Shown here piece by piece: positions 12,311 through 17,716 of a stretch of DNA of 64,000 nt. The notes under the pieces are model-generated. The model had not been told where the DNA came from. It saw only the letters and a list, made by a program, of their open reading frames with translations, and searched no databases. The stretch comes from Eledone cirrhosa. Its lineage: Eukaryota. The stretch lies in assembly GCA_964016885.1 (NCBI GenBank), contig OZ024741.1:364746001-364810000 (forward strand), written 5' to 3'. How positions within the stretch are numbered: the stretch's first letter is position 1; every line of letters begins with the position of its first letter. Made by a program: the position numbers and the translations under genes.

Positions 12311-13826
12311 ATAAATAGCTTAGAGTTTAGACTCAGAGAGGTCATTTACAATCATTTCAGCTCTAGGAATCGCTTCTGAGCAGTATAAATTAATATTTGA
12401 TGAACATTTACATGTTATAGTTGCAATTGACTAATAAGATCGCTAGAGTGAAAAATCTTAATTCAACAACATAAGGTCTGCCTGTACGATCTAGAAAATA
12501 ATAAATCAATACTCACAGACTCATATGGGCAAAAGGCCTTGGTACCTAGACACGTTTAAAATTCAAAATACAAACTTTTTCCGCAGATCGGTCAGGCAGA
12601 CCTTATGTTGTTGAATTAAGATTTTTCACTCTAGCGATCTTATTAGTCAATTGCAACTATAACATGTAAATGTTCATCAAATATTAATTTATACTGCTCA
12701 GAAGCGATTCCTAGAGCTGAAATGATTGTAAATGACCTCTCTGAGTCTAAACTCTAAGCTATTTATCACTGCTCCCCAAGGTGAGCTGAATTTTGTAATC
12801 CCATACAAACGGCTGTTATTTCTAGCACTATGTGTGGGACGTTAGAGGACTGGAATAAGCCGTGTGCAAAACCTCGTGTATTTTCGCTACGCTAACCAGA
12901 CCTTAGATATTTTTCTAAGGTTGAGTTATTTTATTTTTATCTGGGTACCTATTGATAAACACAGAAAAAGTTGATTAACTCACTGCTAATTAGTTAATTA
13001 TTTTACTATTATACCATCCTTTGTGAAACATGTTTGAAGTTTGAAGTTCTGACCGATCTGCGGAAAAAGTTTGTATTTTGAATTTTAAACGTGTCTAGGT
13101 ACCAAGGCTTTTTGCCCATATGAGTCTGTGAGTATTGATTTATTATTTTCTAGATCGTACAGGCAGACCTTATGTTGTTGAATTAAGATTTTTCACTCTA
13201 GCGATCTTATTAGTCAATTGCAACTATAACATGTAAATGTTCATCAAATATTAATTTATACTGCTCAGAAGCGATTCCTAGAGCTGAAATGATTGTAAAT
13301 GACCTCTCTGAGTCTAAACTCTAAGCTATTTATCACTGCTCCCCAAGGTGAGCTGAATTTTGTAATCCCATACAAACGGCTGTTATTTCTAGCACTATGT
13401 GTGGGACGTTAGAGGACTGGAATAAGCCGTGTGCAAAACCTCGTGTATTTTCGCTACGCTAACCAGACCTTAGATATTTTTCTAAGGTTGAGTTATTTTA
13501 TTTTTATCTGGGTACCTATTGATAAACACAGAAAAAGTTGATTAACTCACTGCTAATTAGTTAATTATTTTACTATTATACCATCCTTTGTGAAACATGT
13601 TTGAAGTTTGAAGTTCTGACCGATCTGCGGAAAAAGTTTGTATTTTGAATTTTAAACGTGTCTAGGTACCAAGGCTTTTTGCCCATATGAGTCTGTGAGT
13701 ATTGATTTATTATTTTCTAGATCGTACAGGCAGACCTTATGTTGTTGAATTAAGATTTTTCACTCTAGCGATCTTATTAGTCAATTGCAACTATAACATG
13801 TAAATGTTCATCAAATATTAATTTAT
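12311..13826 (+). mobile_element. 567-bp tandem non-coding element (about 2.2 units) with inverted 5' arm; no canonical HHR
   Basis: Period 567 (AGGCAGACC at 12594, 13161, 13728); 12311-12593 is an inverted copy of part of the unit; (TA)n flanks. Confidence 0.8.
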
Positions 13827-13847
13827 ATATATATATATATATATATA

Positions 13848-13926
13848 GTCTGCTTCTTGGTTAAATATTTCAAACACATGTGTTTTTTTAACCCTTGTAG
13901 ACACACGGTTTACTGTGTTTCTTACT
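13848..13926 (+). repeat. Inverted copy of the terminal partial unit of the 457-bp array
   Basis: Reverse complement of about 12137-12215, including its private deletion (GTGTCTACAAGG). Confidence 0.85.
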
Positions 13927-13970
13927 ATATATATATATATATATATATATATATATATATATATATATAT

Positions 13971-14655
13971 ATAAAGGACGTAAAATAAGAAAATATTTCT
14001 TTTTAAAAAAATTAAAAAAAAATTTTTTTCTTACTTAAATTTTCACTCCAACTAATTAGTTTCTGCAATGGGATAAAGACAGTTACGTAATCCAACTGTC
14101 GAGAATTCATTGCGTCATCATTTGTCGAGCAAACTTGTCAAAACCACTTCTAAAAAAAATTTTTTTTGGGGTGTTAGTAGGCGTCAGTCATCTTACCATC
14201 CCATTCCTTCTAACTAGCCTCTGTGTCACGTGATTGATTCTTTAGAATCGGCCATTTGACTTGAAGCAGTGAGAATTTCGGTACATAGAATCCAGTCCTC
14301 GCAAGCTGTTCGATCTACCGAATTATTATTATTTTTATATGAGCCGCCAGTGTCCGCGCATTGCCTGGAGACTTAACTGAGAATAGACTTCCTGATGACG
14401 CAATGAATTCTCGACAGTTGGATTACGTAACTGTCTTTATCCCATTGCAGAAACTAATTAGTTGGAGTGAAAATTTAAGTAAGAAAAAAATTTTTTTTAA
14501 ATTTTTTTAAAAAGAAATATTTTCTTATTTTACGTCCTTTATATTATTGTTCTGCATTCTCCTGCATTGAACCACCTAGGTACTATGACATAACCTGTGT
14601 ATTTGCTGGCATGGGCGTGCATCTGTGCGCTTATGTTAGTTGATATATTAAATTA
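13971..14655 (+). mobile_element. Non-coding PLE-type remnant: inverted end + HHR (14387-14468) + tail
   Basis: ACTTC CTGATGA cGCAATG-long loop-CATTGCa GAAA CTAATTAG TT GGAGT; 13971-14120 is inverted relative to 14393-14542. Confidence 0.8.
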
Positions 14656-15104
14656 TCTACATATATATATATATATATATATATATATATATATATATAT
14701 ATATATATATATATATATATATATATATATATATATATATATATATATATATATATATATATATATATATATATATATATATATATATATATATATATAT
14801 ATATATATATATATATATATATATATATATATATATATATGTATGATTATATAGCTTCTAATTGAATGGAAGGAAGCATGGGTGGCGTGTTGGTGCAATG
14901 TTAACACACTGGTCCGACAAACCAAAGATCTGGTTTCGTCTCGAAAGTACGTCAATACTCGTCCTTTTCTTTTCCATTCAGATGCTTTTTTTAAAATCCC
15001 AACAAACAGACCAATTTTATTTAGTCGAATACGGCGTAAGCACATGTTACTACCTAATTATATATATATATATATATATATGTATATATATATATATATA
15101 TATA

Positions 15105-15596
15105 CTTGGCCTGGCAATAAAGTCTTTAGCATAGTAGGTTGTGTGCCTAATATTCTAAAAACTTTATTGCCATGTATATAGCAGTAAATGTAGTTAATAT
15201 TTGTATGCGTGTGATATGCTGTATTTTGTCACAGCGCTATGCATGATTATTTTGCTGTCATTCTTGTGAGTTTATAACACATGCATCAAACTGTTCAATC
15301 CACAAACGATTTTTCCCATAACAGAAGAGTGGAAATGATCAAACAATCATCCTATAGTCCTGACTGAAATTTGTGCGATCGTTGGGTGTTCTAGTTATTA
15401 AAATAACATCTTTGAAAATTTGTTTTCGCTTCATTAGAAGTTTAGGCAATTGCCGGTTCCAGAAAGAGTTAAATGCTTTGCATATAAACACTGTAAAGAT
15501 GGAAATTTTGTTTAGCAGAAGAAATAAATTTTAGTTTCAATATGGTGTGCATTTTCATTTAATGGGTTATTCTAAAGACTTTATTGCCACACCAAG
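15105..15596 (+). mobile_element. Internally deleted mariner/Tc1 element
   Basis: TIRs CTTGG..TGGCAATAAAGTCTTTAG / CTAAAGACTTTATTGCCA..CCAAG with TA flanks; internal relic IKQSSYSPD*NLCDRWVF (mariner YSPDL motif). Confidence 0.8.
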
Positions 15597-16670
15597 TATA
15601 TATATATATATATATATATATATATATATATATATATATATATATATATATATATATATATATATATATATATATATATATATATGTGTGTGTGTGTGTG
15701 TGTGTGTGTGTCTGTGTGTATATATATATATATATATATATATATATATAACTCCCACACACCGACAAACACTCAGGCTATCACATTGCTTCGCTTGCTT
15801 CTTGACATTTCTCTTGTCCCTTTTTCCAAATGCCAAATCTTCATCCTGACTCACGTTCCCAGAAAGATACCAACACAAAACACGCCAAATATCATATTAC
15901 ACACACACACACACACACACACACACACACACACACACACACACACACTCACACATCATACACACACAACATATACGGCCCTTTCCCCCTTTTCAACCTT
16001 AAAGCTATATATCTCTTTCTCATATTTCTTTCACTCCTTTTTCCTGGATGTCAAATCTTCATGGTAGATAAATACGTTATTAATGACTTCAATTGTTGCT
16101 ATATATTTTGATAGACCATTAATCTTCACTCCAAAAATATTTACATCCTCGAATGTATCGAACTTCTGTGACGTTTACGGTCAATAAAAACCCTTTTATT
16201 TATCATACTAGCTCCTAACAAGGTCATATATTGTTTTATTTTTATTGAAGTGGTGGGAAGAATTGATTATATCTCCAGAACACCCCTCTGGTACTCCTGA
16301 CTTCATTGTCTTTTCTTCCATCGCGTTTAATAGCCAATGAAAATACGTTATTAATCATAATGGGTTCTAACATACACACACGAGCACATCGTTTGTTTGG
16401 TGTTTGTATGAAGGTGGGGCGGTAGAGAACTGATTATATTCGTGTCACTTCCACTCTGCATTCCTAACACTAACACGTTCTTCATATCGTCACCCATATC
16501 ATATTCACCTCACCTCACACAGAACATCTACTAAACACCAGGCCAGTTATTTCTCACCCAGGGAGCTGTTCCTTCAGTGCCGTTGACGTGTAGCGCTTCA
16601 AGAGGAACATAAACCCATTCTAACACTGGTGTATGTATATACACATACGAATATATATATATATATATAT

Positions 16671-17716
16671 ATAAATTAATATGTAAGTGATGAAACACAG
16701 ATACCAACACATCTGTATATATATTGCAAAAGAAAAATTTAGCCAGATTGAAGTATACTAATTATTATACTACAGTTTGTCCATATCGATTTAAAATAAT
16801 AAATCAACGGAGACGAACTGTATTGCCAAAAGGCCGTGATGTTTAGACACATTTAAATTTCAAAATCAAACCTGTTCCGTAGATAAGTTTAGACTTTAAG
16901 ATCCAAATATGTTTCGAGTTAAATAAGTGTAGGAATATCATGTCCCGCTCTCCTCAGTAAACATCCAGAGACAAATTGATATGCTTCACTTCTAAATAAT
17001 TTAAAAGACTGCGTGACGCACATGGCTTTACAGTATCTAACTAGTCTCATAACCGTACTGCTAGAAATAACAGTCGTATATATGAGGCGGTTTGCAGCTC
17101 AAACTAGGAGCAGTTAAAATTAATAAGGTAATTTATACACTGCTCAGGGGATATTTTTCCTCATTCGAGCTGATTCCATTGTAAAAGAATTCATTACCTT
17201 ATTAATTTTAACTGCTCCTAGTTTGAGCTGCAAACCGCCTCATATACGACTGTTATTTCTAGCAGTACGGTTATGAGACTAGTTAGATACTGTAAAGCCA
17301 TGTGCGGCACGCAGTCTTTTAAATTATTTAGAAGTGAAGCATATCAATTTGTCTCTGGATGTTTACTGAGGAGAGCGGGACATGATATGCCTACACTTAT
17401 TTAACTCGAAACATATTTGGATCTTAAAGTCTAAACTTATCCACGGAACAGGTTTGATTTTGAAATTTAAATGTGTCTAAACATCACGGCCTTTTGGCAA
17501 TACAGTTCGTCTCCGTTGATTTATTATTTTAAATCGATATGGACAAACTGTAGTATAATAATTAGTATACTTCAATCTGGCTAAATTTTTCTTTTGCAAT
17601 ATATATACAGATGTGTTGGTATCTGTGTTTCATCACTTACATATTAATTTATACACTGCTCAGGGGATATTTTTCCTCATTCGAGCTGATTCCATTGTAA
17701 AAGAATTCATTACCTT
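16671..17716 (+). mobile_element. 516-bp-unit non-coding element with long inverted arm; homologous to the 567-bp family
   Basis: 16671-17128 is inverted relative to about 17176-17652; direct repeat AATTTATACACTGCTCAGG at 17130 and 17646; shares blocks such as TTTTGAA.TTTAAA.GTGTCTA and TTGATTTATTATTTT with 12594-13160. Confidence 0.8.

Follow-up and report, generated by a model that had tools for sequence, protein, structure and literature searches.

Penelope-like enzymes are the closest mobile relatives of telomerase. The metazoan repeats called non-LTR retrozymes (LTR, long terminal repeat) have been proposed to be non-autonomous derivatives of Penelope-like elements (PLEs) (PMC7229834; preprint 10.64898/2026.07.22.740005). 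Two repeats of this kind, elements A and B, are found between positions 12311 and 17718 of a 64,000-nucleotide stretch of the Eledone cirrhosa genome, referred to below as the window (assembly GCA_964016885.1, contig OZ024741.1, positions 364,746,001 to 364,810,000 of the forward strand). The families they represent are likely to be young non-coding retrozymes with a hammerhead fold of type I. Their copies terminate immediately ahead of one or the other of two GCUC/GAGC hairpins and would be made by Hydra-clade Penelope enzymes that read these hairpins as start signals.

Like the described metazoan retrozymes, A and B consist of non-coding, low-GC units in head-to-tail order with a type I hammerhead in each (PMC7229834; 10.64898/2026.07.22.740005). 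The units are larger, 516-567 bp against the roughly 300 bp typical of metazoan retrozymes, and the hammerhead differs in having a stem III of about 27 bp and a stem II region of 35-85 nt. With stems II and III this long, it should not need dimerisation. Further differences are the U3:A8 core present in several subfamilies and the prevalence of dispersed, two-armed insertions. A and B add a start signal and a candidate partner clade, neither of which is given for metazoan retrozymes in the available portions of PMC7229834 or the preprint.

PLEs of the Hydra clade (PMC8557442) resemble A and B in several ways: they target (TA)n, form partial tandems with an inverted arm that is truncated at its 5' end, and carry a hammerhead, a tail at one end and the pair of hairpins at the end sites; A and B differ from them in having no open reading frame (ORF) and an extra third hairpin. 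The tail measures 72-79 nt in A, B and a 457-bp family next to them, and 89 and 93 nt in two Hydra-type families of this genome, compared with the 30-40 bp stated for PLEs in the accessible text of PMC8557442. Naiad PLEs share the (TA)n targets and the tandem and inverted layout, but are described there as being without canonical hammerheads (PMC8557442), whereas A and B have a hammerhead, which speaks against their being Naiad derivatives.

In Poseidon PAc of Anolis the tail arises from two internal reverse transcriptase (RT) starts 3' of the hammerhead, as shown in vitro (PMC11167929), and the arrangement in A and B is similar. In the PAc system both target strands are cut and extended, and hammerhead cleavage is dispensable in vitro (PMC11167929). 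For PAc, the start is in an AC-rich stem-loop that belongs to the ORF, and the template there does not resemble the cut DNA (PMC11167929), whereas in A and B the hairpin is duplicated, each of the two copies has a start immediately 5' of it, and the template is AU-rich and resembles the TA target. The portion of this in vitro study available to us maps the two starts and names no transferable signal (PMC11167929). A description of the hairpin was not found in the literature on Hydra and Penelope-like elements, subscription papers and some supplements being largely outside the search; the term "stem-loop" is absent from the main text of PMC8557442.

Organization of elements A and B

Element A consists of an inverted arm of 285 nt (12311-12595, minus strand) and a forward arm of 2.2 units of 567 bp (12585-13827, plus strand). 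The 3' end of the inverted arm is at site 2, just before hairpin 2, and that of the forward arm is at site 1, just before hairpin 1; both abut (TA)n. Eleven nucleotides (12585-12595) are common to the inverted arm and the start of the forward arm. Element B has an inverted arm of 463 nt (16670-17132, minus strand) with its 3' end at site 1, containing hairpin 2 (17097-17111), the third hairpin and the hammerhead (16838-16965), and a forward arm of 1.1 units of 516 bp (17129-17718, plus strand) with its 3' end at site 2. (TA)n flanks both ends of both elements. The units of A and B are about 71% identical (344/483 aligned columns). An earlier examination made from the letters alone (the sequence-only reading) had described two diverged homologues sharing a tandem, an inverted arm and (TA)n, and this layout is borne out, with periods of 567 and 516 bp.

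Both belong to young families dispersed in a genome of 3.0 Gb, for which first-pass searches gave 1029 (A) and 1125 (B) candidates; identity is mostly 97-100% in the 40 candidates scored for each family. They are non-coding, the longest stop-free frame having 47 residues in A and 76 in B, and no ORF in sense continuity with the hairpin motif was found among 72 pattern-picked stretches. The GC content of the retrozyme units, from base counts, is about 34-35%, which is below 45%. Fixed 3' ends, variable 5' truncation, a partial tandem and an inverted arm, all features of PLE-type insertion, are present.

Hairpins and insertion ends

Each unit carries two hairpins with a GCUC/GAGC lower stem. In family A, hairpin 1 (12696-12717, plus strand) has a bulge and a variable upper stem above the lower stem, and further copies of it lie at 13263-13284 and, within the inverted arm, at 12360-12381 (minus strand); hairpin 2 (12771-12786, plus strand; repeated at 13338-13353) follows 75 nt after it. 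In family B, hairpin 1 is at 17142-17170 (plus strand; repeated at 17658-17686) and hairpin 2, 72 nt further on, at 17214-17228 (plus strand). The surrounding ACTGCTC motif occurs twice per unit as previously noted, at 12693, 12768, 17139 and 17211, and TTGTAA follows three of the four copies (at 12726, 12793 and 17179) and is missing after the fourth. In the genome the motif-1 pattern has 1253 matches against 4 in a reversed control, motif 2 together with the third hairpin 1783 against 0 in the control, and the hairpin-pair pattern 2268 against 53 in the reversed control. These matches span many subfamilies with differing loops, and three pairs of the upper stem of hairpin 1 are altered on both sides (alignment A2).

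All four termini of A and B, which the sequence-only reading had placed at or close to the motif, stop 3-12 nt 5' of the G of a GCTC. The same holds for the families at large. After merging of overlapping loci, and with scoring windows that cover 5-7% of each unit, 125/134 arms have a 3' end that precedes the G of hairpin 1 or 2 by 3-12 nt (47/51 in A, 41/43 in B and 37/40 in the 457-bp family, whose hairpins are 79 nt apart). The two arms of an insertion rarely share a site: in 35 two-armed insertions they end at different sites (14 in A, 11 in B, 10 in the 457-bp family) and in 2 at the same site (1, 0 and 1, respectively), while 6 (2 in each family) have one end elsewhere. Same-site pairs thus number 2/37 (p 5e-9), and a 72-79-nt tail is present at one end only. 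The use of different sites speaks for a single RNA having served the two target strands, and against a pair of RNAs cut separately. A recruitment or start signal for the RT, one of two functions suggested for the motif from the letters, is supported by this genomic evidence: the ends are fixed relative to the motif, the arms use different copies of it, and autonomous Hydra-type elements have the same arrangement.

A third hairpin follows hairpin 2. In family A it spans 12800-12838 (plus strand) and has a near-invariant UGUUA-UUUC-UAGCA top on a variable outer stem; its CTGTTATTTCTAGCA is found at 12813, 13380, 17250 and 17073 (minus strand). The earlier description of a conserved hairpin inside two different outer stems is confirmed in A and B. 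No counterpart of it was seen after hairpin 2 in the two autonomous Hydra-type families. The 15-mer CTGTTATTTCTAGCA was rejected as a family counter: of 20 sampled among its 4513 matches, 9 belong to this family, 8 to an unrelated LTR-type element and 3 to other repeats. The LTR-type element, about 2 kb long with direct terminal repeats of 340-410 bp, shares 17-18 bases with the third hairpin (loci L092, L093, L098, L100, L101, L105, L109 and L110), through either chance or capture.

The hammerhead

Alignment of full units showed that the sense strand of both A and B carries a predicted type I hammerhead fold. The order of its parts is the same in the two families: the core heptamer, GAAAC, a long stem III, GTC, and 8 bases complementary to those 5' of the heptamer. 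In family A the fold occupies 12944-13103 (plus strand), with stem I formed by GGUACCUA/UAGGUACC, the core UUGAUAA (U3:A8) at 12952-12958, long stems II and III, and a predicted cut after 13095; a second copy lies at 13511-13670 (TTGATAA at 13519). In family B it occupies 17358-17485 (plus strand), with stem I GAUGUUUA/UAAACAUC, the canonical core CUGAGGA at 17366-17372 and a predicted cut after 17477. The sequence-only reading had found no CTGANGA core. This was an error, because CTGAGGA is present at 17366 (plus strand) and 16957 (minus strand), both on the sense strand of element B, and family A has a U3:A8 variant of the same fold. Its wider claim, that the family is without a canonical hammerhead, falls as well, since one is recovered in the unit alignment, an outcome that the reading itself had named as contrary to it. 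The TGATGA..GAAAAAT relic it reported does exist on the antisense strand, but is not the ribozyme, which is on the sense strand.

Pairing was assessed in 19 of 21 cluster representatives; the other two, being second copies at loci already represented, were excluded. Across these 19 subfamily sequences, stem I has 96.7% of its cells paired and 5 of its 8 pairs altered on both sides; the core pair 3-8 is kept in 19/19 (C-G in 11, U-A in 6, U-G in 2); the closing pairs of stem II are 86% paired; and pairing in stem III, which has 27 pairs, reaches 94.3%, 14 of them showing one-sided variation as G-U. In slid controls the pairing drops to 16-53%. A descriptor tailored to the fold had 171 matches in the 648,870 bases searched (overlapping loci unmerged) and 0 in reversed sequences, and a strict generic hammerhead descriptor applied to 26 diverged motif-bearing copies matched 6/26 on the sense strand and 0/26 on the antisense strand. 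The fold of the family B hammerhead has a z-score of -3.17 on the plus strand and -0.63 on the minus strand. U3-A8 has been reported in the hammerheads of Schistosoma PLEs (PMC4209133), and U3-A8 hammerheads are natural and active in vitro (PMC3088659).

The Rfam hammerhead model gave no match in 12600-13340 at E up to 10, nor in 11 loci at the gathering score. An Rfam scan of the whole window likewise gave no ribozyme for the A and B families among the best 150 of 377 matches, the only hammerheads there being HH9 at 49641 and 50107. Rfam probably misses the A and B hammerhead on account of its oversize stems II and III.

The 457-bp family (8926-12215, minus strand) has a canonical CUGAUGA hammerhead together with the hairpin pair (e.g. 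11644-11665 and 11568-11586), and CTGTTATTTCTA after the hairpins. It is a distant relative of A and B, and its hammerheads are matched by a model built from alignment A1 with an E value of 1.4e-5. Since the same hairpin pair stands beside a canonical hammerhead, the motif is no substitute for the ribozyme.

The 5' ends of the arms tend to fall after the predicted cut. In A, 22/51 lie at most 60 nt after it and 7 in the 60 nt before it; the corresponding numbers are 12 and 5 in B and 8 and 6 in the 457-bp family, all from loci biased toward full length and therefore suggestive only.

Autonomous Penelope-like families

A family with intact 709-residue ORFs has the same end structure as A and B. 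It has two GCTC..GAGC hairpins with a spacing of 89 nt, and about 25 nt separate the second from the ATG downstream. Copies stop 3-4 nt ahead of one or the other hairpin, with 91/96 distinct ends at these sites. The two arms use different sites in 23 pairs and the same site in 1, and 2 pairs have other ends. The ORF carries DKT at residue 115, YRDD at 346, CNCRNRADC at 564, YIG at 598, CDLC at 662 and CKH at 690. The Hydra clade is defined by DKT, a CxCX5C linker, plus a GIY-YIG at the C terminus with CxxC and CxH (PMC8557442), and comparison of motifs with published proteins by eye suggests that this family is Hydra-type. The N-terminal RWK motif reads LWR in the 709-residue copy tested, and RWR or RWK in other copies and families.

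A second Hydra-type family ends before an ACTC/GAGT and a GCTC/GAGC hairpin 93 nt apart (39/43 ends), the former being a compensatory change of the lower stem; its arms use different sites in 8 pairs and the same site in 0, with 3 others. The window itself contains the 5' part of an ORF of this family (63276-64000, plus strand); the hairpin 2 there is slightly degenerate and lies about 22 nt 5' of the ATG. Hammerhead-like cores in the pseudo-LTRs (pLTRs) of the two families were recognised by eye only; the strict generic descriptor gave no match in either. The heptamer CAGAAGA (U4A) was observed in the hammerhead-like core of the pLTR of the 709-residue Hydra-type family (L264, upstream of hairpin 1) and in one retrozyme subfamily (L210).

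Published Hydra consensi, examined by eye in the supplement of PMC8557442, carry the hairpin at the unit junction in sea cucumber, coral and copepod, which adds three further phyla. Hydra-1_Ajap starts with two GCTC..GAGCACTCT hairpins before the ATG, Hydra-2_Ajap and Hydra-2_Amil have one hairpin near the 3' end, Hydra-1_Crog has GCCC/GGGC before the ATG, and the form in Hydra-1_Obim is GCTC/GGGC around a long loop. No hairpin is seen in Hydra-1_Amil, whose 5' end is incomplete.

A young Neptune family served as a control and has two end sites 61 nt apart with no GCTC/GAGC hairpin. The absence of the motif from its end sites led to its rejection as a partner. This family (L161-L190) is very young and about 4.2 kb long, with an open frame of 775 residues in nearly all 57 places scored.

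Proposed mechanism

The cycle may begin with a plus-strand RNA of one or more units. The plus strand is indicated by the fixed 3' ends, the ragged 5' ends and the G-U pairs. By analogy with known retrozymes, this RNA is likely cut by the hammerhead, 165-240 nt upstream of the hairpins, and the resulting monomers may form circles. A Hydra-type protein with RT and GIY-YIG domains would then nick (TA)n on both strands and prime cDNA in the AU-rich sequence that lies 3-12 nt 5' of a hairpin, where the ends are in fact located. Different sites are used by the two arms, and a single RNA would serve both nicks, with the hairpin 1 start on one strand and the hairpin 2 start on the other. Both cDNAs would halt at variable points and be joined through a short shared sequence, giving the observed tandem-plus-inverted layout with its 72-79-nt tail at one end.

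We lean, by a small margin, toward a more specific form of this scheme, in which the Hydra-clade RT docks on RNA at the duplicated 4-bp hairpin, a signal conserved in four animal phyla, and two enzyme molecules seated on both hairpins of one (possibly circular) RNA prime both strands of the TA break at once. Such a docking hairpin would be the sequence-level cause of the Penelope tail, as well as a portable signal that lets hammerhead retrozymes hijack the enzyme.

The retrozyme features themselves were already known; what is new is the hammerhead's large size and its U3:A8 branch, the length of the tail, and the hairpin pair that Hydra-clade elements also have. The hairpin bears on how Penelope-like enzymes pick an internal start on RNA: at each start, and at a set distance from it, this small structure is retained in many non-coding subfamilies that otherwise share little, as well as in autonomous Hydra-type elements. 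It also names the Hydra clade as a candidate partner for animal retrozymes. Oversized or U3:A8 hammerheads escape Rfam, so that "hammerhead-less" PLE derivatives may be overcounted.

Opposing evidence and alternative explanations

Several observations weigh against the proposed reading. The subfamily sequences are related, and the covariation cells of the hammerhead are therefore not independent events. The predicted cut site is crossed by 44/51 arms of A and 33/43 arms of B, so that the template would be an uncut multimer or a re-ligated circle, and the predicted hammerhead cleavage is accordingly either dispensable or reversed. The GCUC/GAGC stems are invariant in 22/22 rows of alignment A2, but this is partly circular because these 22 of 24 representatives were selected by the GCUC/GAGC pattern; of 9 family loci for which the third hairpin was the sole selection criterion, GCTC..GAGC is present in 7, a C-to-T change preserving a wobble pair in 1, and the remaining 1 is truncated within the hairpin. 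The small hairpins fold no better than shuffled sequences (z -0.4 to -1.8), a weak energy that would suit an element read by a protein more than an autonomous catalyst. No A>G excess, as a trace of RNA editing, was found on the sense strand (A>G against T>C: 9 and 37 in A, 23 and 24 in B, 21 and 38 in the 457-bp family; overlapping loci unmerged). Finally, the ends fall in AU-rich sequence like that of the TA target, which blurs the exact start base, and in two family B insertions (L037 and L042) the partner of site 1 is not site 2 but a TA-like site, 67 nt upstream of site 1, that has no such hairpin.

The AU-rich ends and the shifted B insertions would also be expected if the starts were set by pairing of the nicked TA with an AU-rich template at a fixed spacing from a farther protein-binding site, for instance the third hairpin, and if GCUC/GAGC were kept for some other purpose, such as transcription, translation or RNA stability. 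All ends lie in AU-rich sequence, the two exceptional B insertions are shifted upstream by about one spacing, Neptune has two sites without the hairpin, and hairpin 2 of the Hydra elements is placed about 22-25 nt before the ATG. Nevertheless, the spacing between hairpins varies from 72 to 93 nt among families, yet the distance from end to hairpin stays constant at 3-12 nt, and many other AU-rich stretches in the units go unused, which makes this explanation unlikely.

The signal could instead be as described and the mobilising enzyme belong to another PLE clade, such as Naiad, Nematis, Poseidon or a different Neptune family. The families compared in this genome are two of Hydra type and, as the control, one of Neptune. 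Beyond the hairpin, no nucleotide homology is detectable between A or B and the two Hydra-type pLTRs, and the base after GAGC is U in the retrozymes and A, C or G in both Hydra families, so that no direct partner family is named. However, several subfamilies have a hairpin 2 that matches the one in the 709-residue family almost letter for letter, and Naiad was rejected as a partner since the hairpin pair was not found in the Naiad and Chlamys consensi of the PMC8557442 supplement by exact-motif searches and reading. An enzyme of another clade is accordingly quite improbable.

Slightly less probable still is that the hairpins act as DNA, being sites of the GIY-YIG endonuclease in the donor copy, with no RNA signal involved. 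The tail of the D. virilis Penelope is required for endonuclease recognition, as cited in PMC11167929, and the lower stem is conserved in sequence. Against this, the one-sided stem changes are of the G-U type on the sense strand, the copies are dispersed and 5'-truncated in new (TA)n targets, and the hairpin adjoining an end is not copied into that end.

That the motif is a new self-cleaving RNA replacing the hammerhead and generating the RNA 3' ends that become termini, which was the main idea of the sequence-only reading, is hardly credible: the termini do lie just 5' of the motif, as expected of a ribozyme cutting at its 5' border, but the full hammerhead fold is present and the pair coexists with canonical hammerheads in other families, separately cut RNAs should pair at random, whereas same-site pairs are rare, and the motif, a 4-bp stem with a free loop, matched no Rfam ribozyme, including the twister, pistol, hatchet and hepatitis delta virus models proposed for comparison (unit 12600-13340 and 11 loci).

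Neighbouring repeats

Element A lies within a TA run, with the array of the 457-bp family on one side and, on the other, a short inverted copy of the last 85 bp of that array (12131-12215 and 13848-13932). The inverted copy carries private variants of the last 457-bp unit; it is either the second arm of the 457-bp element or an inverted duplication that arose at insertion. An unclassified element with 152-bp inverted arms (13969-14544) adjoins a TA run, and a similar sequence is found beside locus L209.

Two other repeats in the window are without the GCTC/GAGC pair. The first (7605-8868, minus strand) is a three-piece 425-bp repeat having a hammerhead-like core CTGACGA..GAAAC..GTA with stem I ACCTT/AAGGT. 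The second (49251-50385) is a two-armed repeat of 466 bp; its hammerhead is minimal and scores 37.6 bits with Rfam HH9, below the gathering score. PLE fragments are located at 2199-3821, 4792-5760, 35772-36470, 53713-55998 and 61166-61801, and are presumably Hydra-, Neptune- and Nematis-like, judging by their motifs. Hammerhead-like cores lie 3' of several PLE fragments in the window.

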